NCBI GenBank assembly: GCA_964445355.1
Contig: CAYUKQ010000003.1
Location: 3,693-67,692 of the forward strand
Source: an uncultured Gammaproteobacteria bacterium
GTDB taxonomy: Bacteria > Patescibacteriota > Microgenomatia > CAYQLK01
Direction of reading: 5' to 3'
Length of the DNA stretch: 64,000 nt
Shown here: in pieces, positions 1,416 to 61,456 of the stretch
Layout: every line of letters starts with the position of its first letter
How positions within the stretch are numbered: position 1 is the first letter of the stretch
Program-made: the position numbers and the translations under genes
Notes under the pieces: model-generated
The model's database searches: none
What the model saw: the letters and a program-made list of their open reading frames with translations, nothing else
Told to the model about the DNA's origin: nothing

Positions 1416-1444
1416 TGGACAAATTAGGCCTAGAGTATTAGAAT
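1416..1444 (+). promoter_or_regulatory. Promoter TGGACA-N17-TAGAAT followed by ATCCCGAG (partial element)
   Basis: Hexamers and 17-nt spacing read from the sequence. Confidence 0.45.
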
Positions 1445-1489
1445 ATCCCGAGCACTTTTGCAAAAAGAGAGGTTCGAAGCTAACTTGCC

Positions 1490-2107
1490 GTGGTTGAAGT
1501 GAAAACGGTTCGGATCCCGGTGTCGCAGGTTAACCGCGACAGATTCAGACACACGACCAGCAACGTTTTCGCGTGGCCGGACTTGGTGACTCAGCTCATC
1601 ATGTCCTCGTCGGCGGTCTTGGGGCGCAACAAGCCGGATGTCAACACTTTGGTGCTGGCCCGGGTCGAACAGGTCAGGCTGGATCAGCGGTTGCTGCTGC
1701 GATTCGTTGCGGCTGGCAACAACGAGGATTTGCACTTGGCGGGTGTGCGGATCGAGCACGGGAGCGAACGATTGGTTACTCCAATGGTTCTCGATTCGAT
1801 GCCGATGATGGCAGCCGTCAAGGGTGTGGCCGGCGTGCCTGGCCAGACCAAGCCACACCATGGTTTTGCCGTGGCATCGCTCAAGGGTATTCTGCCTCAG
1901 GCGCGTGCTTTGGTGCTTCAGCTGCAAGTCCCGCAAGGGGCGGAGGGGCACGTTTTCGGTTGTTTGGAGCCGGTGCGTGATTCGTCCGAGGGCGAAGAGG
2001 AAGTCGCGTTTTTCAGGCATCAGCGCAGATACCCGTCCGGCCAGGGGTACGCTCGGGTCCCTTCCGATGGACAGTATCCGTTGCGACGGCGGTTCACTCG
2101 GGACTAG
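1490..2107 (+). CDS. Hypothetical protein, GC-rich cassette gene (GTG start)
   Basis: 205-aa ORF co-oriented with flanking + promoters and terminators; the opposite-strand 241-aa ORF is R/H/Q-rich with no promoter and is judged spurious. Confidence 0.5.
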   Translation: MVEVKTVRIPVSQVNRDRFRHTTSNVFAWPDLVTQLIMSSSAVLGRNKPDVNTLVLARVEQVRLDQRLLLRFVAAGNNEDLHLAGVRIEHGSERLVTPMVLDSMPMMAAVKGVAGVPGQTKPHHGFAVASLKGILPQARALVLQLQVPQGAEGHVFGCLEPVRDSSEGEEEVAFFRHQRRYPSGQGYARVPSDGQYPLRRRFTRD

Positions 2108-2176
2108 CTCCGAGAAGACTGGTATTGCGATCGAGCAAGCAAGCCGCGTCTGCAACTTGTGCGGATCGAAACAAAG

Positions 2177-2214
2177 GGCGCCTCTGTAAAAAGAGGCGCT
2201 ATTTTTTATTTTAA
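2177..2214 (+). terminator. Rho-independent terminator (GGCGCCTCT...AGAGGCGC then TATTTTTTATTTT)
   Basis: Perfect 9-bp stem plus T-run after the 1490-2107 stop. Confidence 0.65.
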
Positions 2215-2227
2215 TGCTGATTTGGTT

Positions 2228-2268
2228 ATCCTGTAGTGTTGGATTTTTATTGTCGTTGTGGGTATAAT
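2228..2268 (+). promoter_or_regulatory. Motif-promoter module copy 3: ATCCTGTAGTG then TTGGAT, 18-nt spacer, TATAAT
   Basis: Read from the sequence; drives the 2351 gene. Confidence 0.55.
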
Positions 2269-2350
2269 CTCGGACTTAGTTCGTTAACAATCCTCGGGGC
2301 AGCCGAAAAAAGAAAGACAAAAATTCACCGCAAGCAAGGAGTATACGATC

Positions 2351-2800
2351 GTGGGAGTACAAACTCGGGTAAGTCATGTCGACTTTCACACACCTCTTGA
2401 TCACAGGACCAGAATGGTTCTGGAAGGGGGGCAGTTTGAGGCCTGGATTTCGGCCCTGGTCAGGGCAATCCAGGACAGTCAGCCGATTTGGCACAAATCG
2501 GTCGATGGCGTCAGAGTCGAGCCGATCTATCGGATGTATTTTCCTTACCGCAAGTGGCTGATCTTTGGCCTGAGTCTGCCTGAAGGCGGGTCGGGACTGA
2601 AGGTGGTCAACATTGAGTTCCAAACAGATCACCCCAACGTTCCCATCATCAATTCCAGGGTTTTCCCAGAAGGAATTTCGGGGGGAGACAAATTCGTCGG
2701 ATGGCGTTATTTTGACGCTGTCGAACTTCGCGACTACGCCAAGCAGCTGACCGGAATCCATTTTTCGGTTGAGCTGGTAACCACACAGGAGGAGGTCTAG
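2351..2800 (+). CDS. Hypothetical protein, GC-rich cassette gene (GTG start, AAGGAG RBS 7 nt upstream)
   Basis: 149-aa ORF with strong SD; preferred over the antisense 301-aa ORF 2276-3181, which has no promoter or RBS. Confidence 0.6.
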   Translation: MGVQTRVSHVDFHTPLDHRTRMVLEGGQFEAWISALVRAIQDSQPIWHKSVDGVRVEPIYRMYFPYRKWLIFGLSLPEGGSGLKVVNIEFQTDHPNVPIINSRVFPEGISGGDKFVGWRYFDAVELRDYAKQLTGIHFSVELVTTQEEV

Positions 2801-2891
2801 GTTTATCAAAACGTTACGCATTCCCCTGAGGAACCGGCGGTATTGGTGGGCACGCCAGCCGCAAGATCGAATTCCTGTACTGCTAAGCGAC

Positions 2892-3251
2892 ATGATCAAG
2901 CAGTCGGAAGATCCTGAAGGAGCGCTGCAAGGACTGATCCTGAGAGTCGAAGAAGCCAAGATTTTCGGAGCGCGAGCGGTTGCGTTCCGCTTGGAACGTG
3001 CTTTTAGTCGGGGGCCGAAGTTTGCGGCGAGAGTGTATCTCGAGTCTCTTGATGGGGTACGGTTGGAGGCTGCACCGTCAGCCGGCATCGACGGATCGGG
3101 AACGGGTAACCGGATTTTCATGTACAAGGAGTTCTTGACCGCTTTGGGTTCGGCAGATTGTCTGGTTTTTGAGGTCGACACTCTTGACTCTAATCCAGGC
3201 GTGTTTGTTCGAGCACTCCAGTCGGTCGGCAGCCGCCTCCGAAGATCTTGA
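2892..3251 (+). CDS. Hypothetical protein, GC-rich cassette gene
   Basis: 119-aa ATG ORF, co-directional and followed by a terminator. Confidence 0.55.
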   Translation: MIKQSEDPEGALQGLILRVEEAKIFGARAVAFRLERAFSRGPKFAARVYLESLDGVRLEAAPSAGIDGSGTGNRIFMYKEFLTALGSADCLVFEVDTLDSNPGVFVRALQSVGSRLRRS

Positions 3252-35773: not shown

Positions 35774-36630
35774 AATTTTTGATCAAGAAGAAAATCAGAC
35801 GAGCGAAAAATCCGATGGCGGTAAGGACAAGCAAAATTAGGGTGTCTGAGAAGTTGGGAATTTCTAAAAGGCAGATTTTGGTCTTTTTTTCAATATTAAT
35901 GACTGGTGGTTTAACGGTTTCGTTACTGTCAGAAGGCAGAAGTCTGTATCTGCTGTCTTTTTTGCTGGCAGTGGCGGCAAGTTTGGTAACAATATGGGTG
36001 TTAAGAAGAGATCTGGCCGGAATTAAATATTTTGTATTGCCGATCTTGCCGTTTTTCTTCACGTTTGCAATGGCGTTGTTTTTTCAGTTACTACCGGAAA
36101 GATGGTTGACCAGATTGCCGTTTATGGCAGTGTATGGGGTGTCGATATATTTAATATTTCTTAACCAGAATGTCTACAATATTGCGGCTATCAGGACGAT
36201 TGCGTTACTGCGTGCAGCTCATTCTGTGGGGCTATTATTTACACTTATTTCGGTTTTTATTATTGCCAACGTCACATTCTCTTTAAGATTTAATTTTGTA
36301 TTTCTAACGCTGATTTTGACGACAATTTGCGGATTGATGATTTTTCAGACCCTCTGGTCATTCGAGTTGGAGGATTTGCTAACTAAGCGACTGCTTAAGA
36401 TGACGTTGGTTTTGACATTGATCGTTTCACAAGTCGTGCTGACTTTGTCCTTTTGGCCAGCTGAGCCAACGGTTCAGGCTATAGCAGTCACAACGGCGGT
36501 GTATATGTTACTGGGTTTAAGTCAGGCTTATTATTCGGAACGTTTGTTTCGACGAACGGCGATTGAATATATTTTGTTGGGAGCAGGGGTTTTTGTTCTG
36601 CTATTTCTGACGACCAGCTGGATCAGCTAA
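35770..36630 (+). CDS. Hypothetical polytopic membrane protein (about 8 TM), ATGA-overlapped with ruvC
   Basis: Multiple hydrophobic segments; no recognisable domain. Confidence 0.55.
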   Translation: MKFLIKKKIRRAKNPMAVRTSKIRVSEKLGISKRQILVFFSILMTGGLTVSLLSEGRSLYLLSFLLAVAASLVTIWVLRRDLAGIKYFVLPILPFFFTFAMALFFQLLPERWLTRLPFMAVYGVSIYLIFLNQNVYNIAAIRTIALLRAAHSVGLLFTLISVFIIANVTFSLRFNFVFLTLILTTICGLMIFQTLWSFELEDLLTKRLLKMTLVLTLIVSQVVLTLSFWPAEPTVQAIAVTTAVYMLLGLSQAYYSERLFRRTAIEYILLGAGVFVLLFLTTSWIS

Positions 36631-36639
36631 CGCCCGTTT

Positions 36640-37990
36640 AGCTTTCTGTATATCCTATAGTAATTAAATAAAATTAATTCTCATTGATCGTAATGGGTCT
36701 TGCGGATTGAGAGAAATTTCTATTGAGATCAAGACAATTAGAAAAGATAAGAGAAGGGGTGAAAAGAGAAAAATTGGATACCGATATTGAGATAGGGAAG
36801 TAAGGCGATTTAGCTTTAATGTTTGAATTTTTGATATAGTTTGATATACTTGTGAAAAATAGCGTGAAAACAAGTGTGAAAACTGATGACAGTTAAAGGC
36901 GGGGAGTGACAAACGTGTGTTTGTGGATAACTTATTTTGATCGTAGCTGGTCTTCGTCTGTTTAAGTAGGTGGTCATCTTGCCCTGTGTGATGCTTACAA
37001 GTATTGTTCTCTGTCAATTAGGTTGGAGTATGAAAATAGCTTTAAAATTGAGTGTTTATCCTATTGTAACAATCTAAATTATTAACATAAGACTCGAATA
37101 TTATAGGGTCTATTTAGCCTTGAATGCAGAGGTGTGTTGGTATCAGGTAGTAAGGGTGTAGGGACTAATAGCATTAATCAAGAACAAGGTAAAAGGATAG
37201 ATTGATTGAGCTTGTTATCTAGATCTGCACTGCTCCCAAGATAAGTGAGTCAGAAGTAAAAAATGATATGTCGTACAATATAACTTTTGCGACGTAAAAT
37301 AAAAAAAATGGAGTGGGGTTGAAAACCAATAAAAATTAGAAAAAACTTAAAAAAATGTTTTTTGAAAATTTTTTTTCTTTGATATATTTTGATTCTGCTT
37401 TCTTTTTTTCTGGGCCTATGATGATTAATTTGATATAGTTTTATACAATTGTGTAAATTTATATATTTTTTGCGGGATTTATGAGGTAAATGGCTGTAAA
37501 AATTAAAATTTATCCGATAGACTACCCTGCCCGACTAATAAAAAGCCGTTTTAGGCCCAATCAGGGGCTTTTAGCCTCAAATACTCGGTATTTTACAGCT
37601 GAGGTGGTATAAATCTTACTTGATTCCTGGACATTAAATATTCGGAGGCCAAATACTTGTTTGTTAAAAGGATTGTTTCGGAGATTATCGGTTTCTTGGC
37701 AAAATTATCCATAATCAGGCGGATTGTCTTGCTGAGTCTAGTCGTTGCAGTGCTTGCAAGCGCGACCGCTTGGATTGTGACTCAGGATGTGTCGTGGGCT
37801 TATGTAACGTTGTTCCTTGGAGCTTTTGCTTGGGCGGCTTTTGGTACCTCTGTTACACAAATCTCTCGGCTTGATTAAGGTTTTCGTCGCCTTGTACCGG
37901 TTTTTTAAATCTTAACCCACTATTTTTTGATGGGTTTAAGAATTGACTGACCGGTTTTTCTTAAAAAGTGATATGTCGCACAATGTGATA
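36640..37990. other. 1.35-kb AT-rich non-coding region with a perfect DnaA box (36922-36930 TGTGGATAA), several 7-8/9 DnaA-box-like sites, AT-tract (37320-37410), repeated TTGATATAGTTT and GTGAAAA elements and two copies of GATATGTCG(T/C)ACAAT
   Basis: No ORF over 75 aa on either strand; motifs read directly from the sequence. Confidence 0.5.
37657..37878 (+). CDS. Possible small two-TM membrane protein (TTG start, GGAGG RBS)
   Basis: 73-aa ORF with two hydrophobic helices; weak. Confidence 0.3.
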   Translation: MFVKRIVSEIIGFLAKLSIIRRIVLLSLVVAVLASATAWIVTQDVSWAYVTLFLGAFAWAAFGTSVTQISRLD

Positions 37991-38000
37991 GAGTGGATAT

Positions 38001-38972
38001 ATGGAGACTCCCAAAAACTCGTTAAAAGAAAAAACTGATAAGTTTGAGAAAGAGATTAGGGAGTTTTTGGAGTATTTGGAGGTTGAGCGTAATGTCTCTC
38101 CCCTAACGATTAGGGACTATAAACATTATTTGGAAGTATTTGCCAGCTGGGCAAACGAAAATAATATTAGTGACATCGAAAGTGTTGATATTAAACAGAT
38201 AAGGTCGTTTCGATTGTTTTTATCAAGAAAATTAACGCAGGACGGCGAGCCTATTAAAAAAATAACCCAGAATTATTATGTGATTGCCCTAAGGGCAATG
38301 TTAAGGTTTTTGGTCAAGAATGATCGGGAGGTCTTGTCTCCAGACAAGATCGAGCTCGGTAAGCAGGAGGGTCGACAGGTAAAGTTCTTGACTCAGGATC
38401 ATTTGAATCGGTTGTTGAACAGTCCGAATATTAATAGTTTAAGCGGGTTAAGGGATAAGGCTATTTTGGAGATGCTTTTTTCGACCGGATTGCGTGTTTC
38501 TGAGATGGTTAGTTTGGACCGTGATTCGATAGATTTAAATTCGGGTGAATTTGGAGTTATGGGAAAGGGCCGCAGGGTTCGAGTGGTGTTTTTGTCGCCA
38601 GATTCTGCCACTTGGATTGCAAGATACCTCAATGCTCGGGATGATCATTACGAGCCGTTATTTGTTAGATTTAAGGGTAAAAAGTCGATTGTGGATGATG
38701 ATGAGAGCCACAGGTTAACCTCTAGGAGCATTCAAAGAATCGTTGAAAGTTATGTTAAAAAAGCACAGCTACCAATAAAAGCAACTCCGCACACTTTAAG
38801 GCATTCTTTTGCGACGGATCTATTGAATAATGGTGCTGATATTCGAAGTGTACAGGAGATGTTGGGACATAAAAATATTGCGACCACTCAAATATATACC
38901 CACGTAACGAATCGTCAGCTTAGGGAGGTGCATCAGGCTTTTCATTCAAGAAAAAAGAATGCGGACGAATAG
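38001..38972 (+). CDS. xerC: Tyrosine site-specific recombinase, XerC/XerD family
   Basis: C-terminal catalytic region HTLRHSFATDLL ... LGHKNIATTQIYTHV with the tyrosine nucleophile. Confidence 0.85.
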   Translation: METPKNSLKEKTDKFEKEIREFLEYLEVERNVSPLTIRDYKHYLEVFASWANENNISDIESVDIKQIRSFRLFLSRKLTQDGEPIKKITQNYYVIALRAMLRFLVKNDREVLSPDKIELGKQEGRQVKFLTQDHLNRLLNSPNINSLSGLRDKAILEMLFSTGLRVSEMVSLDRDSIDLNSGEFGVMGKGRRVRVVFLSPDSATWIARYLNARDDHYEPLFVRFKGKKSIVDDDESHRLTSRSIQRIVESYVKKAQLPIKATPHTLRHSFATDLLNNGADIRSVQEMLGHKNIATTQIYTHVTNRQLREVHQAFHSRKKNADE

Positions 38973-39053: not shown

Positions 39054-39386
39054 TCAGCACCAGAGTGATGTTTGGCAGACCAGAATGGTTGGCATAAACA
39101 AGAGGTCGTCGAGGTGCCATCGAGGCTGGGCATGCCTGACGCTTTTTGCAGCGCCAGTCAGCAGTTCGTAAGCCAGTTCGGGGGCCATGGTCAGGTCCTT
39201 GCCGGGTTCGCGCTTGGACACGATTGGGATCTGATCCAGGTCGAAATTGATTTGTGCAAGGCGATAGGTGGGTTTGTCCGGGCTTGGCTGGACTGGTTGG
39301 CCGTTAAAGTCGGTAAATATCGGGCGATGACGGAAAAGAACCAGACTCAGTCCGCGGCGGTTGGTACTGTTTTCAAAAAACACCAA
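39054..39386 (-). CDS. GC-rich hypothetical ORF; reading frame stays open upstream to about 39546 (directly after the SIMPL gene stop) with no canonical start before TTG 39386
   Basis: Protein-like 110-164-aa frame in a 57% GC patch; start unresolved. Confidence 0.4.
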   Translation of the reverse strand: MVFFENSTNRRGLSLVLFRHRPIFTDFNGQPVQPSPDKPTYRLAQINFDLDQIPIVSKREPGKDLTMAPELAYELLTGAAKSVRHAQPRWHLDDLLFMPTILVCQTSLWC

Positions 39387-39576
39387 CCTTGCAGCTGTCG
39401 GGTACTGTGTGAGGAGTGATTCAACTAGCCCGTCGAGTTGGGGGTGGCGCTTAAAAACTTTCGCGAACAGAGTCTTTCTCCCCTTTCCCTTCGGCGGTTT
39501 TTTGGTATACCACCGAATTTGTTTTTTTGGATTAAGGTGCTTAATCTAAGATATTATCAAATCGGGAAGGTATTTA

Positions 39577-40359
39577 TTAGAGTGTTTTGTATGTTAGGGT
39601 TACCTCAAGCTTGATCTCTCCCCCACCGGGATTAATTTCGGTATTTTTATTAACTGTTTGTTCACTGCCACCTATTCCCTGTTTAGAGAAGCCCGTGTCG
39701 TAATACGGTTCCGGGTATGATGTGCCTGGTTCATATTCGTTGTAGTAGGTTATTTTGCCTAATGAAATTCCGGCAGTATCTGCTGCGGTTTGAGCCTTGC
39801 GTTTCGCGTCAGCGACAGCAAGTTTGCGAGCTTCATCGAGGGCTTTTTGGCGGTCAGTAAGACTAAATTCCAGACTGTTAACCGTATTAAGACCACCGGC
39901 AGTTGCTGTGTCGATCACGGTACCAACCTTGCTCAGGTCTTTGACTTTGATACCAAGGGTGATGTTGACCGTGTAGTCTTTGATCGCTCTTGTCGGTAGT
40001 GTGAAGTCATAGTTGGGGTTGATATTGTAGTTATTTGTTTTGATATCTTCGGATTTAATTCCCATTTTGATCAAATCTTGCTTGACTAAGTTAATGCGTT
40101 CGTTAGCTTTGGTCTGGGCAGATTTGACACTAAGGTCGTTGATTAGGATACCAAGAGATATTTCGGCTTGATCAGGTACGACGGCGACGGATCCTTCGCC
40201 TGTTACCGAAAAGTCGTTACTGATTGACTGGGTGGTGTGAAAAACGGGCGCAAGCTTTGTTTGAAAAACTGCAACAATCGATCCGACAGTGATAAGTATC
40301 AAAAGAACTGGTTTGGCACAACTGACAATAAATGTTCTCATATATTTTGATTGTAGCAC
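39577..40359 (-). CDS. SIMPL-domain (DUF541/BP26-like) periplasmic or surface protein; possibly leaderless from ATG 40341 (TACAAT 8 nt upstream)
   Basis: N-terminal TM or signal, then the SIMPL-family pattern of DUF541 proteins. Confidence 0.7.
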   Translation of the reverse strand: MLQSKYMRTFIVSCAKPVLLILITVGSIVAVFQTKLAPVFHTTQSISNDFSVTGEGSVAVVPDQAEISLGILINDLSVKSAQTKANERINLVKQDLIKMGIKSEDIKTNNYNINPNYDFTLPTRAIKDYTVNITLGIKVKDLSKVGTVIDTATAGGLNTVNSLEFSLTDRQKALDEARKLAVADAKRKAQTAADTAGISLGKITYYNEYEPGTSYPEPYYDTGFSKQGIGGSEQTVNKNTEINPGGGEIKLEVTLTYKTL

Positions 40360-40703
40360 GCATAAGTTATGTAAAAAAAAATTGGGATAAGGATCTCAGG
40401 TGAAGACGACCGACTCGCATCTTTTGCTTCGAGCTAGCGCACTCTGAAGCTATAAAAATGCTAACGCCTATTGTTGAGCCGTCTTCACCTGATGTGACAC
40501 CTTCACTCGCTGTATATCCATAAGGTTGCGTGACTGGAGAGGTTTTTCCGTGAACGCTTTTTATGGGGACGCAGTTTGTGAAGGATAATCACCTTAAGGA
40601 TGGGGACTTTCTGCTCTTGTTTCGCTGTTGAGACTCAAGCAGAGAAAAGCTCTGGTGATTAGTGAGCTGGATTGTAGCAAATTGTGGTTAATAGTCAATG
40701 AAT

Positions 40704-40739
40704 AAGAAAAAGGCCCTGGTGCGTTTTGCACCAAGGCCC
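40704..40739 (-). terminator. Rho-independent terminator on the minus strand (GGGCCTTGGTGC-aaaac-GCACCAGGGCC then TTTTTCTT)
   Basis: 11-bp stem with one mismatch plus T-run on the reverse complement. Confidence 0.6.
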
Positions 40740-41497
40740 AGAGTTGTGGTCGGGGCGCAGTCCGTCAGGACCGAGCCCCGTCTATTTGCGGGTGGCATTT
40801 TCCGCTGCCGGCTTTGGCTCGCGATTGAGCCGGTGCCCACAGTCGGGGTTCATGCCCCCATGGTTTTACCTCGCGATCGAGGCCGCTGCCTTGTGCGTCA
40901 CGGCAGAAACGGTGGCGGCTGTTTTAAGGCGGCCACTTTTGGTCAATCGCAACGAGACTTTGTATCTCGGTGCGGGCCGGCCATATTCGCGGGCGGCCTT
41001 CGCTAGTGCCAGAGGATGACGGCACATTTTTGACATCTCCGGGGAGCGCGGACGGGCTGTCCGCGCTCCTTGCGGTCCCGAAAGCCCTCGGGACAACAGG
41101 TGAAAAAGGACAGGCACGGATAAGCCATAACCACTTTTTGCGCAGGTGGGTACCCGAGTCTCATGCGTAGAGACGCGAAGCCTGAACACCAGTGCTTGGT
41201 TGGTTTTGGCAGAGAGACACCAATTCTCTTCGTCCCCCCCCCAGAATAGGGAGTTCAGAGGAGTTATTAGTGTCAGCAAATCGTTCTCCTTGTCGATTCC
41301 GTGACGCATCCTGCCCCGCGCCCCTTTTCCCGACTAATCGGTAGGATCCCAGTGTGGGTAGTCCAGGGGGAAGCGCTTAGAGATATCAGTGTAAAAAACT
41401 GGATATTCCTAAGTGTTTCTCCCTGGATGGCTTTTGAAGCAGGAGTGCAAAGTCCTGATGATTTTTATATGTGCACAGCTAAAACAAATTAACTGCG
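40740..41497 (-). ncRNA. GC-rich (about 58%) transcribed unit of about 0.76 kb with no credible ORF: candidate structured ncRNA or decayed cassette. Contains a G9/C9 homopolymer (41234-41242) and two perfect hairpins (41043-41069, 41075-41094)
   Basis: Bounded by the consensus promoter (41504-41543) and the terminator (40704-40739); only ORF-like frames are low-complexity and overlap on both strands. Confidence 0.4.
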
Positions 41498-41503
41498 GGA
41501 GCC

Positions 41504-41543
41504 ATTATATATTATAGATGATTAATTGTCAAATACTATAGGG
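41504..41543 (-). promoter_or_regulatory. Motif-promoter module copy (minus strand): CCCTATAGTA then TTGACA-N17-TATAAT (perfect consensus)
   Basis: Reverse complement read directly; points into the GC-rich 40740-41497 unit. Confidence 0.6.
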
Positions 41544-41679
41544 TTCTCCAGATTACGCTGTAATCTTCGTGTCTTCTCTTCGAGCAGGCGTTGCTTTAGT
41601 TATGCGAATTATTCTCTGGGTTTAAGCTTGGGTTTTTCAGCTACGGGGCTGGATTTGGGTTTTGTGATCTTAGTTTTAG

Positions 41680-44202
41680 CTACTTTGGCAGTTTTTGTCT
41701 CTGAAGCTGGAAGGGGGGGGCTGATTTTTCCTCTTGCTCTTCTTTGGCGATAGTTGCTGTTGCTGAGACGGTATCGCCAGCTTTGCTAAAACGCATTAAG
41801 GTAACGCCTTGAGTGTCTCTACCGAGCCGGGGAATGTTTTTGATCGGCAGGCGGATGATCTGACCTTTTTTGGAAGTTAAGACCAGAGACTCATCGGACG
41901 AATTAATTAGTTCTGCAGAGACAATTTTACCAGTTTTGCTGGTAATATTGGCAGCTTTTACTCCTTTGCCTCCCCTACCCTGCATTGTCCAGACCGATGA
42001 GAAAGATTTTTTACCAAATCCGTTCTCAGTGACAATCAGTAGTTCGTCTTTATCATTATCGATGTGGCCTACTGTTAGTCCGATGACTGAGCCGTCGTTT
42101 TTGAGGTTGATTCCCCTAACCCCCCGAGTGTCCCGGGCGGTTGGGCGGATGTTTTTTTCATTGAACTTAATTGATTGTCCGTTATCAGCAACGATAAGAA
42201 TGTAGTCTGAGCCGCTGGTTAATTTGGCCCAACGGAGTTCGTCGCCGTTGTCGAGATTGATAGCGATAATACCAGTACGGCGGATATTGCTGAACTTAGA
42301 GATGGTCGTTTTTTTGACAATACCTTTTTTGGTTACCAGTAAAATATTGGCATCAGGCGATGTGGTCTTGGCGATCGGTAGTATAGATAATATTTCTTCC
42401 CGTTGCTCAATATCGATAAGATTAATGATCGCTTGACCTTTGGCGGTTCGTGAGCTTTCCGGTACTTCGTGCGTTTTAAGCTGGAAAACCCGGCCGCGAT
42501 TAGTAAAGAACATCAATGAATCGTGGGTTTGGCAGCGGATTAAGTGTGAGACGACGTCTTCTTCTTTGGTGGTAATACCGGAGATACCCTTGCCGCCACG
42601 GCGCTGAGTTTTGAAAGTATTGGGTAATTGGCGCTTGATGTAGCCTGTTTTGGTGATGGTTACGATGGTTGGTTCGTTAGCAATGAGGTCTTCTTCAGAA
42701 AATTCACCAATCTTGTTTTTGATGATCTTGGTGCGACGGGCATCACCATATTTTTCTTTGATCTCGATCAGTTCGGTCTTGGCGAGTTGAAGGATTTTTT
42801 CTGGATGCGCAAGTAGGTCTTCTAAATAAGCAATCAATTCACGAACCTGCTTAAGCTCTTCTTCGATCTTGAGCCTTTCCAGTGCAGCTAAACGTCTTAG
42901 TTGCATATCCAAAATCGCCACAGCTTGAAGTTCTGAAAGTTTGAATTTGGACATTAATTGGGTTTTGGCTGTTTCGACATCAGCAGCGGCTCGAATAATA
43001 CGGATCACTTCGTCAATGTTGTCGACGGCAATTTTTAGCCCCTCGAGGATATGTTCTCTGGCTTTGGCCGCTTTGAGATCGAATTCACTGCGTTTGGTAA
43101 TTACATTCTGACGGTGCTTAATAAACTCGTGAAGCATGATGTTAAGAGTCATAGTTTGGGGAATTCCGTCGATCAGTCCAACCGCATTGACCGAAAAACT
43201 CTGTTGCATACTGGTGAGTTTGAAGAGATTGTTTAGGGTGGATTGTGGTTTGGCATCGCGTCGGAGTTCGATCGTAATACGCATACCCTTGCGATCGGAG
43301 TCGTCACGCAGATCGGCGATACCCTGAATCTTTTTGTTGCGTACGAGATCAGCGATTTTTTGGATCAAGACTGATTTGTTGACCTGGTACGGAAGTTCGG
43401 TAACTACAATTTGGAATTTGCCGTTTTTCCGCTCTTCAATATCGGCTTTGGCTCGGGTAATTATTCGGCCACGACCGGTAGCGTAAGCAGCGGTGATCTC
43501 TGTTTGGTCGTAGACGATTCCTCCGGTTGGAAAATCGGGTCCTTTGATAAATTGCAGCAGATCTTCGACTGAAGCTTCCGGGTTGTCGATTAGGTGCGTG
43601 GTCGCGTCAATGACTTCGCTTAAGTTGTGAGGAGGAATACTGGTGGCCATACCGACGGCAATACCATTCACCCCATTAAGTAAGAGATTCGGAATAACGG
43701 CCGGAAGCAGATCCGGTTCTTTGAGTGTACCGTCGAAGTTGTCGGTCCAGGTGACAGTGTCTTTGTCGATATCGCGTAAAAGTTCGTTGGAGATTGCAGC
43801 CATACGGCATTCTGTATAACGCATTGCAGCTGCAGGATCCCCGTCGATTGAGCCGAAGTTGCCTTGGCCATCGATCAATGGATAGCGGAGTGAAAAATCC
43901 TGAGCCATTCTAACTAGGGCTTCGTAAACCGGACTATCGCCGTGGGGGTGATATTTACCCAGTACCTCGCCGACAACCTTGGCACATTTTGAGTAGTGAG
44001 CTGAATGTGTTAAGCCAATCTTATACATGGCGTAGATGATGCGGCGTTGCACTGGTTTGAGACCGTCGCGTACGTCAGGAAGTGCACGTGCGACAATAAC
44101 ACTCATGGCGTAGTCGAGATATGAGCGTTTCATCTCGGCGACAATGCCACTTTCGATGACTTTGCCGATATAATCGATGTTGGTTACAGTATTTTCTGCC
44201 AT
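41680..44202 (-). CDS. gyrA: DNA gyrase subunit A
   Basis: Near-full-length match to the GyrA pattern (AAMRYTE active-site Tyr region, C-terminal beta-pinwheel repeats). Confidence 0.95.
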
Positions 44203-60655: not shown

Positions 60656-60706
60656 AATTAAGTTAGTATTTATGCTTAAGCGATTATACTGGCAATTGAA
60701 GCTGTG

Positions 60707-61456
60707 TCAAGCTTGGCTTTTTGTATTATTACTTAGGTTTTGAAGCGCAGCTTTAGCTGCTTCCTGCTGGGCTTCTTGTTTACTGTTGCCGGTTCCTGTA
60801 CCTGATACGACTCGATTGATCGAAACTTCAACTGTGAATGTTTTGGCGTGATCAGGACCGCTTTCGGATACGGTTTTGTAAAAAGGTGAACTTTTGAAGC
60901 GTTTTTGTACGGTTTCTTGTAGCCGGCTTTTAGGGTCGAGCAGTGAATTTTCTAAATCTTCGGACGGTTTTTTGAGTAAGGTTCGGAAAACGAATTTTTT
61001 GGCTGTGGAGATGCCGGAATCGAGAAAAATTGCTCCAAGTACCGCTTCGTATGTGTTGGCCAGAATCGATTTTGTCTTTACTCCGCCCCGTTCATGCTCT
61101 CCTTTAGAGAGGAATAGGAATTTGGCTAAATCCAGTTGAGTCGTCATGTCGGCCAGACTTTCGGTGCGGACTAGAACTGAGCGGTAGTGAGTGAGTATTC
61201 CCTCTTTTTGGTCCGGGTAAGTTAAATATAGCTGTTCAGAGACAATTAGTGACAGGACACTGTCGCCGAGGAATTCTAGTCGTTCGTTGTCGTGAGTAAA
61301 AACCGTATCCGGTGCCGATACTTCGTTAAGGTAAGATCGATGTACAAATGCATTAGCAAGAAGTTTTGGATTTTTAAACTTAACTCCGATTGCCTTTTCT
61401 GCTTCAGCGACTGGGAAATTGTCGTAAAGAAGTTCGGTATTGGTTTTTTTGGTCAC
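60707..61456 (-). CDS. rnc: Ribonuclease III
   Basis: NERLEFLGDSVL RNase III signature plus C-terminal dsRBD. Confidence 0.9.
   Translation of the reverse strand: MTKKTNTELLYDNFPVAEAEKAIGVKFKNPKLLANAFVHRSYLNEVSAPDTVFTHDNERLEFLGDSVLSLIVSEQLYLTYPDQKEGILTHYRSVLVRTESLADMTTQLDLAKFLFLSKGEHERGGVKTKSILANTYEAVLGAIFLDSGISTAKKFVFRTLLKKPSEDLENSLLDPKSRLQETVQKRFKSSPFYKTVSESGPDHAKTFTVEVSINRVVSGTGTGNSKQEAQQEAAKAALQNLSNNTKSQA

Follow-up and report, generated by a model that had tools for sequence, protein, structure and literature searches.

What occupies the roughly 0.8 kb of GC-rich sequence between gyrA and a SIMPL/DUF541 gene in the 64-kb stretch of contig CAYUKQ010000003.1 analysed here (the whole stretch is hereafter called the window)? 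A first-pass annotation had seen a promoter and a terminator bracketing this region without a convincing open reading frame (ORF) in it, and had offered two explanations, a structured non-coding RNA (ncRNA) running from its own promoter to its own terminator, or a cassette gene that was recently pseudogenised and carries a slippage-prone tract. Comparison with homologous loci favours the first: copies in seven lineages, each with promoter and terminator, have kept their predicted helices by compensatory changes, and we consider it very probable that the element is a real RNA gene, conserved and structured, that belongs to a new family. As predicted from promoter and terminator, the analysis shows an independent ncRNA gene at 41497-40703, between gyrA and SIMPL/DUF541. 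All coordinates are positions in the window, and the RNA unit, including its promoter, lies on the minus strand (41543-40703).

Promoter, terminator and predicted transcript

The unit is preceded by a perfect sigma-70-type promoter, as the first-pass annotation had recognised, with -35 TTGACA at 41532-41527, a spacer of 17 nucleotides (nt) and -10 TATAAT at 41509-41504, scoring 12/12 in a consensus scan. Exact TTGACA-N16-18-TATAAT arrangements are found at only two sites of the window, against 0.01 expected from shuffled sequences. Because the other perfect site (TTGACA-N16-TATAAT, 60683-60710, minus strand) drives rpsP, a KH-domain gene and trmD, the promoter of the large RNA would belong to the class used for ribosomal operons. 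The rpsP-operon promoter overlaps the final codons of the gene upstream of it.

At the other end stands the strong intrinsic terminator that had likewise been read from the sequence, a hairpin of 12 pairs, eight of them G-C (40739-40711), followed by a U-run. The GC content was measured as 56% across the unit of about 795 nt, slightly below the 58% given at first, and reaches 61% in the 3′ 460 nt; the flanks have about 40-45% and the genome roughly 42%. For the transcript of about 795 nt a fold of -339 kcal/mol is predicted (z = -10.6, and z = -8.6 in a separate run of 15 shuffles).

The motif that had been pointed out directly upstream of the promoter is present at 41543-41534, but it is not special to this unit. 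CCTATAGTAnTTGA occurs at five sites of the window (142, 36654, 41527, 46896 and 59163; 1.3 expected), each of them preceding a -10 box at the proper distance, with the motif abutting the upstream side of the -35 box or overlapping it, and a motif of the CCCTATAGTA/CCTATAGTA type stands before all seven copies of the RNA. CCTATAGTAnTTGA is common to promoters across this genome and looks like a lineage-specific extended promoter element. Its core, CTATAG, is palindromic.

Homologues, synteny and distribution

GyrA places the organism in the Patescibacteria, with a best genome match of 91% identity (L002; loci are designated by L and a number) and 60% identity to that of a Woykebacteria genome. 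A GyrA synteny scan with one genome per GTDB species yielded 80 gyrA loci, none of which has similarity to the window downstream of gyrA. The contig of L002 stops before the position of the RNA, its tail corresponding to a small upstream element that is also found in L095, and in Woykebacteria and about 30-35 other loci from the candidate phyla radiation (CPR) no homologue of the RNA was found by blastn, nhmmer or covariance model.

The gene downstream of the RNA led to RNA-bearing contigs. All contigs traced through SIMPL homologues of 58-84% identity have the gene order gyrB, gyrA, a gap, SIMPL and a small ORF, followed on the opposite strand by xerC, DUF5656, ruvC and yebC. In L094, L095/L096, L098, L099/L100 and L117 a homologue of the RNA occupies the gap between gyrA and SIMPL, which measures 1.2-1.5 kb. 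SIMPL genes of lower identity (42-46%) lie in other contexts and have neither an RNA-sized gap nor the RNA upstream. Metagenomes were also scanned for the pattern CAGGATGCGYCAYGG-N3-5-CGACNNGG, taken from the most conserved block of the RNA; three of the 15 matching stretches are true members (L106, L108 and L113), and the other 12 were set aside as fortuitous. Of these, 11 fall in DNA of high GC content that mostly looks coding, and L107 falls in a region of iteron-like repeats.

The members are thus the window copy, L094, L095/L096, L098, L099/L100, L106, L113/L108, L117 and the partial L118, with homologues in six further species-level lineages of the same CPR clade. Wherever the contig reaches that far, the RNA lies between gyrA and SIMPL. 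All seven copies have a -35 box (TTGACA or TTGACT), a 17-nt spacer, a -10 box (TATAAT, TACAAT or TATACT) and their own terminator of hairpin and U-run. The homologous RNAs are 606-797 nt long with 52-56% GC, and their identity between lineages is 52-71% (84% for L099/L106), at a GyrA identity of the hosts of 86-92%. An nhmmer profile of the seven sequences and a covariance model of the 5′ domain (R1, scores of 94-134 bits) recover all members. Neither has a further match anywhere in the window, and both are also negative for about 35 other CPR gyrA loci and for the RNA-deleted loci described below. By these sequence criteria the comparison shows a family of RNAs of 600-800 nt whose members span seven or more species-level lineages, all within a single narrow clade.

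Conserved fold

An alignment with homologous regions, which the first-pass annotation had proposed as a check, reveals compensatory changes in the predicted pairs. On the eight-row alignment (A2) RNAalifold gives a consensus of 154 pairs in 25 helices, and pairs were counted in it against slid controls, in which the partner was moved by 1-3 columns, and against 500 shuffles. Standard pairs are present in 92.0% of the cells, compared with 41-48% in the slid controls, and 49 pairs have changed on both sides, compared with 8-12; neither value is reached by any of the 500 shuffles. In addition, all seven members fold better than dinucleotide shuffles of themselves (z from -5.5 to -10.7). In this consensus model all copies are shown to share a multi-domain fold, the predicted helices of which are kept by compensatory changes while the sequence drifts. 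As modelled, it runs from a 5′ hairpin through an A-rich single strand, a long hairpin, a central domain (probably with a pseudoknot) and a 3′ domain to a hairpin followed by a C/A-rich tail.

Coordinates of the individual elements are collected in Table 1. The long irregular hairpin (helices 3 and 4) comprises 21 pairs, six with compensatory changes, is paired in 92% of the cells and falls within covariance model R1. The central domain is closed by helices 6-8, in which GGGAAAA...GGGGCAGG-[AUGCGY]-CAYGG pairs with CCRUG-CCUGUCC...UUUU (41332-41298 with 41120-41099); helix 8 is paired in 100% of cases and has undergone C-G/U-A and A-U/U-A exchanges. The bulge AUGCGY on the 5′ side of this closure could pair with the hairpin loop RCGCAU of the same domain, of which CGCAU (41167-41163) is the invariant part, and in L117, the only species with a changed bulge (AUGUG), the partner loop reads CACA, which makes a pseudoknot between the two suggestive. 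Further downstream, the stem of the GGCACUAGCG-AAGGCCGCCCGCGAAUAUGGCCGGCCCG hairpin reads GGCCG/CGGCC but CCAC/GUGG in L106, as can be seen in the alignment. The C/A-rich strand after helix 24 is conserved, as ACCACAAC in the window and CCAACCAACAACAG in other species, and helix 25, the terminator, has 11 pairs in the consensus fold, four of them with compensatory changes. The loop of the last hairpin varies between species (UGAC, UUCG, UAAAAAA and others).

Coding potential and known RNA families

The region is not protein-coding, and the early impression that it holds no convincing ORF has stood. Its period-3 signal-to-noise ratio is 1.1; real genes elsewhere in the window reach 5.6-23, and among them are pyrF, pyrE and the NUDIX gene, which are just as rich in GC. 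A Pfam search of all ORFs in the region gave no match, and the 147-amino acid ORF has no homologue among 5.8 billion proteins. Open stretches differ in each of the RNA homologues, none being common to them, and the indels between the homologues in the alignment are not in multiples of three.

Among known RNAs, too, the element finds no counterpart. The Rfam search that had been recommended at the outset was carried out with release 15 (4227 families): cmscan of the whole window at the gathering threshold reports a tRNA-Leu elsewhere and nothing in the RNA region, a search of 40300-41700 at E<=10 gives only chance matches to hairpins resembling microRNAs or small RNAs (sRNAs), far below threshold, and the seven homologous loci have no match at E<=0.1. 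The RNA is thereby shown to fit none of the 4227 Rfam families, as far as covariance models of sequence and structure can tell. Since ARAGORN finds neither tRNA nor transfer-messenger RNA (tmRNA) in the RNA region or in eight homologous loci, and Rfam finds neither tmRNA nor RNase P RNA in window or homologues, the first-pass annotation was right to distrust its own loose resemblances to both. Covariance models of the known large bacterial RNAs, among them OLE (ornate, large, extremophilic), GOLLD, ROOL, HEARO/omega RNA and raiA, match neither the region nor its homologues. The same holds for group I and group II intron models (E<=10 in the region, E<=0.1 in the homologues); an intron was also rejected on the grounds that the 11-bp hairpin of the unit has no bulge or GNRA loop and is missing from three species, and that the unit is intergenic, has its own promoter and contains no reverse transcriptase or homing-endonuclease ORF.

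A mobile or repeated element was rejected as well, the unit being single-copy in the 64-kb window and in each locus and fixed in its position between gyrA and SIMPL. No true match to the RNA turned up in collections of phages, plasmids and viruses (the first two searched by blastn). As for paralogues within the window, the GC-rich islands at 27.5-29.1 kb, 46.3-46.8 kb and 5.3-5.8 kb are real genes or unrelated sequence without blastn similarity. In the open-access literature on structured or large ncRNAs of CPR/Patescibacteria we found nothing relevant. Taken together, the element appears to represent a genuinely new class of large structured ncRNA that is restricted to one lineage.

Lineage-specific features, strain variation and loss

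The two hairpins and the homopolymer that had caught the eye in the first-pass annotation exist where they were placed, and yet they are not key features of the RNA: by the alignment they are lineage-specific embellishments outside the conserved core. The 11-bp hairpin (41043-41069, inverted repeat I11) and the 7-bp hairpin (41075-41094), the latter read from the sequence and seen in the predicted fold, form an insertion found only in the window, L099 and L106/L113, with a gap in L094, L095 and L098. The run of nine G residues (C9 on the other strand; 41234-41242), read directly from the sequence, is G7 in the same-species contig L082 from sample SRR14932482, and GGG or GGGG in other species. 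The difference between G9 and G7 may be due to slippage or to sequencing error; lying within a non-coding stem, a change in its length would be harmless. The remaining differences between L082 and the window fall in the terminal loop and the junction of one hairpin of the 3′ domain.

The assembly of sample SRR14932482 breaks inside the promoter of the RNA, L001 ending at window position 41531 and L082 starting at 41556, and other same-species contigs break at 41196, 40855, 40847 and 40732. These breaks may reflect co-existing variants, including a sister type from which the RNA is deleted. Such a type is represented by the sister lineage L088-L093 (GyrA 98.6% identical), in which the last approximately 100 nt of the RNA with its terminator directly follow the gyrA stop codon. 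Its promoter and about 700 nt of the RNA are deleted, SIMPL is retained, and the terminator now follows gyrA. Contigs with and without the RNA both occur in sample SRR25722605. DNA contigs of the organism stem from SRR14932482, SRR32555621, SRR8893623, SRR29948353/55 and SRR25722605, and relatives from JGI 3300007580, 3300007465 and 3300015360. Its loss from the nearest sister lineage makes the RNA probably accessory rather than essential, barring a second copy elsewhere in the RNA-deleted genomes.

Possible mode of action and alternative explanations

Very few bacterial ncRNAs exceed about 500 nt and also have an intricate fold that is conserved; they comprise the rRNAs, RNase P RNA, tmRNA, group I and II introns, OLE, GOLLD, ROOL and few others, nearly all of which have proved to be ribozymes, cores of ribonucleoproteins or unexpected RNA-only assemblies. 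Genomes of CPR/Patescibacteria are tiny and under strong reduction, and given this, the presence in seven lineages of an RNA gene of about 0.8 kb with a promoter of ribosomal-operon grade would imply a real cost-benefit. We propose that the RNA is transcribed from its consensus sigma-70 promoter, stopped by its own intrinsic terminator, and would act in trans as a stable, abundant and folded molecule, either within a ribonucleoprotein, as its core or scaffold, or as a machine made of RNA alone. The model for it would be the orphan "ornate" large RNAs OLE, GOLLD and ROOL, rather than an mRNA, a simple antisense RNA or a leader. By analogy with these RNAs, a trans-acting mechanism based on the fold or on a ribonucleoprotein appears nearly as plausible as all other modes of action together.

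The likeness to OLE (about 610 nt, from Bacillota) includes a large multi-domain conserved fold, a stand-alone gene, a narrow range and a non-essential nature, and OLE was highly expressed and without obvious function when discovered, as would be modelled for the RNA of the window. Unlike OLE, the window RNA does not match the Rfam OLE model, comes from the phylum Patescibacteria and has as neighbours gyrA and SIMPL, with no adjacent oapA-like gene. GOLLD (about 800 nt) and ROOL (about 580 nt) form RNA-only multimeric cages, and OLE also forms a higher-order particle (PMC12286853). With GOLLD and ROOL the predicted RNA would share the size class of 600-800 nt, GC-rich helices with A-rich linkers, orphan function and a patchy presence in close relatives. 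It differs from them in that it has no covariance-model match, no association with phages or tRNA clusters, and a fixed chromosomal position.

That it is the founding member of an undescribed class of ornate large RNAs, peculiar to one lineage of ultra-small and probably host-dependent CPR bacteria, is a tentative proposal which we consider rather less likely than not to hold in full. If it is true, the fold itself would do the job, be it catalysis, scaffolding of a ligand or protein, or self-assembly, instead of simple antisense regulation, and the RNA-containing and RNA-deleted sister populations in one sample would offer a direct handle on its function. The RNA would be a new entry point into the biology of uncultivated CPR bacteria. 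The candidate is concrete and testable, with an alignment suitable for a covariance model, natural deletion variants and public samples; because the family is small, shallow and without a function in hand, its immediate impact is modest.

Several points weigh against this interpretation. Transcription, ends and abundance of the RNA are predictions from promoter and terminator, and the trans-acting mechanism is an argument by analogy. The alignment consists of seven species-level sequences from one shallow clade, and the pair counts are inflated because they were made on the very alignment from which the consensus structure had been obtained; nevertheless, the margin over the slid controls is still large. 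The pseudoknot pairing is only suggestive, because it has a single compensatory event that is equalled in 64 of 500 shuffles. The profile and covariance-model searches covered the loci retrieved here, to which the known distribution is limited, and a second copy of the RNA may exist elsewhere in the RNA-deleted genomes. Finally, the constant place upstream of SIMPL could reflect a link in cis, or mere conservation of gene order among close relatives.

Among the alternatives, we regard as unlikely, while still deserving attention, that the RNA is a regulator acting in trans through its conserved single strands (the 5′ ACAUAUAAAAA, the 3′ CCAACCAACAAC tail and the loops), by pairing with mRNAs or as a protein sponge, so that the fold would only present them. 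Two such strands, A-rich at the 5′ end and C/A-rich in the 3′ tail, are indeed conserved, and the prediction leaves them unpaired in every member. The promoter is strong, and the RNA is dispensable in a sister lineage, as regulators commonly are. Yet 600-800 nt, 25 conserved helices and long-range pairings far exceed the needs of known bacterial base-pairing sRNAs and sponges. A CsrB-like sponge in particular was set aside, since the number of GGA motifs in the window sequence is, by an informal count, about what its composition predicts.

The position upstream of SIMPL, in the same orientation in all seven lineages, might instead suggest a giant cis-acting leader of the SIMPL operon, similar to a riboswitch or attenuator and working through regulated read-through of the terminator, the more so as the SIMPL start lies within about 30 nt of the terminator in L094, L099 and L106. 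We find this quite improbable. The terminator is strong across copies (8-12 bp, G+C-rich, U5-8), no conserved alternative pairing or antiterminator was seen in a search that was not exhaustive, and an extended -10 box belonging to SIMPL itself, TGCTACAAT, stands 8 nt ahead of its ATG. Moreover, a separate promoter-terminator unit of about 300-480 nt lies between the RNA and SIMPL in four lineages (the window, L095, L098 and L117), the sister lineage without the RNA keeps SIMPL, and distant SIMPL genes have no such RNA upstream.

A highly divergent tmRNA or RNase P RNA, missed by the standard models, has very little to recommend it. Like tmRNA, the window copy has a strong promoter and a terminator of its own, pseudoknot potential and an ACCA after the final hairpin. 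Close to a long-range helix it also has UCGAC behind a G-rich segment, and GGGG...GGAAUCGACAAGG is loosely similar to a tmRNA 5′ end. Like RNase P RNA, it stands out as structured and GC-rich in a genome that is AT-rich, has long-range helices and contains, in its central domain, a GGCUUA hexamer resembling that of CR-V, and its promoter would suit a housekeeping RNA. But besides the negative ARAGORN result for the window and eight loci, no tmRNA or RNase P model matches at E<=10 in the window or E<=0.1 in the homologues. There is no tRNA-like domain, T-loop (GGUUCGAAUCC-type), G-U acceptor pair or end-to-end acceptor stem, no conserved tag ORF or stop codon after the CGAC..GG block, and the length is twice that usual for tmRNA. 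The CR-I/CR-IV/CR-V signature of P4 in RNase P RNA is equally missing, with no GGAAAGUCC/ACAGAA pair and a GGCUUA hexamer that has no partner by our reading of the alignment. A housekeeping identity is also unlikely because the gene is deleted in the closest sister lineage; for an essential RNA such a loss would be tolerable only with a second copy in the genome. Two variants were rejected individually: tmRNA-like ends (GGGGCGC/GCGCCCC plus ACCA), the pairing of which is not conserved in the homologues and comes with no T-loop, and an RNase P RNA split between AGAAAGUCC in the neighbouring unit of about 290 nt and GGCUUA in the large RNA, as AGAAAGUCC is not conserved in L095 and L098 and the neighbouring unit is absent in three species.

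Hardly any weight remains for a decayed protein gene, that is a horizontally acquired GC-rich cassette frameshifted at the G-run with a merely apparent structure: although other GC-rich islands of the window are real genes (pyrF/pyrE and NUDIX), a 147-codon ORF is present and the slippage-prone G9 run varies in length between samples, this explanation is effectively refuted already by the missing periodicity, Pfam or protein homologues and common open stretch, by indels out of step with codons, by the base pairs kept through double changes, by promoter and terminator being kept in seven lineages, and by the G-run being the strand of a helix.

Coordinates of features

Table 1. Features of the RNA unit and the adjoining candidate, in order along the minus strand (window positions).
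Feature	Position	Strand	Basis and remarks
Promoter-upstream motif CCCTATAGTA	41534-41543	minus	Read from sequence
Sigma-70-type promoter, TTGACA-17 nt-TATAAT	41504-41532	minus	Consensus scan, 12/12
RNA, ~795 nt	40703-41497	minus	Ends predicted; start ~7 nt past the -10 box, stop where the terminator U-run ends
Helix 1, 5′-terminal hairpin	41476-41495	minus	6 pairs, 3 with compensatory changes
Conserved single strand ACAUAUAAAAA	41462-41472	minus	ACATATAAAA invariant in the 8-sequence alignment; L117 reads ACATATACAAA
Long irregular hairpin, helices 3 and 4	41362-41427	minus	Inverted repeat I1; core GGGAAACACUUGG / AAGCGYUUCCC conserved
Central multi-helix domain, closed by long-range helices 6-8	41099-41332	minus	Alignment and RNAalifold
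Bulge AUGCGY, 6 nt, candidate 5′ half of pseudoknot	41304-41309	minus	AUGCG invariant in six species
G9 run, 3′ strand of small helix 9	41234-41242	minus	Read from sequence
Hairpin loop RCGCAU, candidate 3′ half of pseudoknot	41163-41168	minus	97% of cells paired, one compensatory change
Two near-perfect hairpins, 7 bp and 11 bp	41043-41094	minus	Lineage-specific insertion
Conserved block GGCACUAGCG-AAGGCCGCCCGCGAAUAUGGCCGGCCCG, hairpin with conserved 13-nt loop	40973-41010	minus	Alignment
Helix 17	40948-40974	minus	9 pairs, 6 with compensatory changes, 97% of cells paired
3′ domain, helices 19-23	40789-40859	minus	GGGGAGURUGAACCCCGACUG-GGGCACCGGCUC...GAGCC...GCCGG...GGAAAAUGCUACCCC
Helix 24 hairpin, then C/A-rich single strand	40743-40780	minus	10 pairs, 7 with compensatory changes; hairpin 40780-40751
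Intrinsic terminator, helix 25 and U-run	40703-40739	minus	Consensus scan and alignment
Second structured-RNA candidate, separate from the large RNA	40372-40698	minus	TG-extended TTGACT-16-TACAAT promoter, z = -5.6

Neighbouring elements

The second candidate RNA that adjoins the large one has a length of about 290 nt, ends in a 13-bp perfect inverted repeat followed by U9 and has no Rfam match. L088, L095, L098 and L117 have it; L094, L099 and L106 do not. On the other side, just upstream of the promoter of the large RNA, a CTCGAAGAGAAGACACGAAGATTACAGCGTAATCTGGAG element with a 7-bp hairpin is located at 41552-41590 (minus strand), of which L117 (1-95) has two tandem copies. In other loci the space between gyrA and the large RNA holds extra small units (L094:4580-5280, L095:3480-3940, L099:3800-4030 and L002:3785-3963; none in the window), which have their own consensus promoters, hairpins (one with GUUCUCG/GUUCC-type repeats) and CCCCGC...GCGGGG terminators. 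Small RNA genes thus seem to accumulate in the spacer between gyrA and SIMPL.

The extended -10 box of SIMPL lies at 40341-40358 in the window (minus strand), is also found at L094:5985-6003 and L118:255-284, and is conserved in relatives. As it ends so close to the ATG, the SIMPL mRNA would be leaderless or nearly so. SIMPL is always followed by the gene of a small protein of about 139 amino acids (39057-39473 in the window, minus strand) with a non-ATG start and no Pfam match, which is 74% identical to a 153-amino acid ORF of L089 and 40% to that of L099; the stretch looks non-coding because a mechanical ORF list shows only a truncated ORF of 110 amino acids starting with TTG.

Two further regions of the window might be of interest. 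Between the DUF5656 gene and xerC, an AT-rich stretch of about 1.37 kb (36630-38001) contains no convincing ORF, and a gap of similar size occurs in L088, L095, L098 and L099. A promoter motif of the CCTATAGTA type stands at its start (36654, plus strand), and the stretch could hold another RNA or an uncalled gene. The block at 1430-3250 has 53-60% GC, long overlapping ORFs on both strands without Pfam match and only weak to moderate codon periodicity; foreign DNA, a novel gene and an RNA are all conceivable here.

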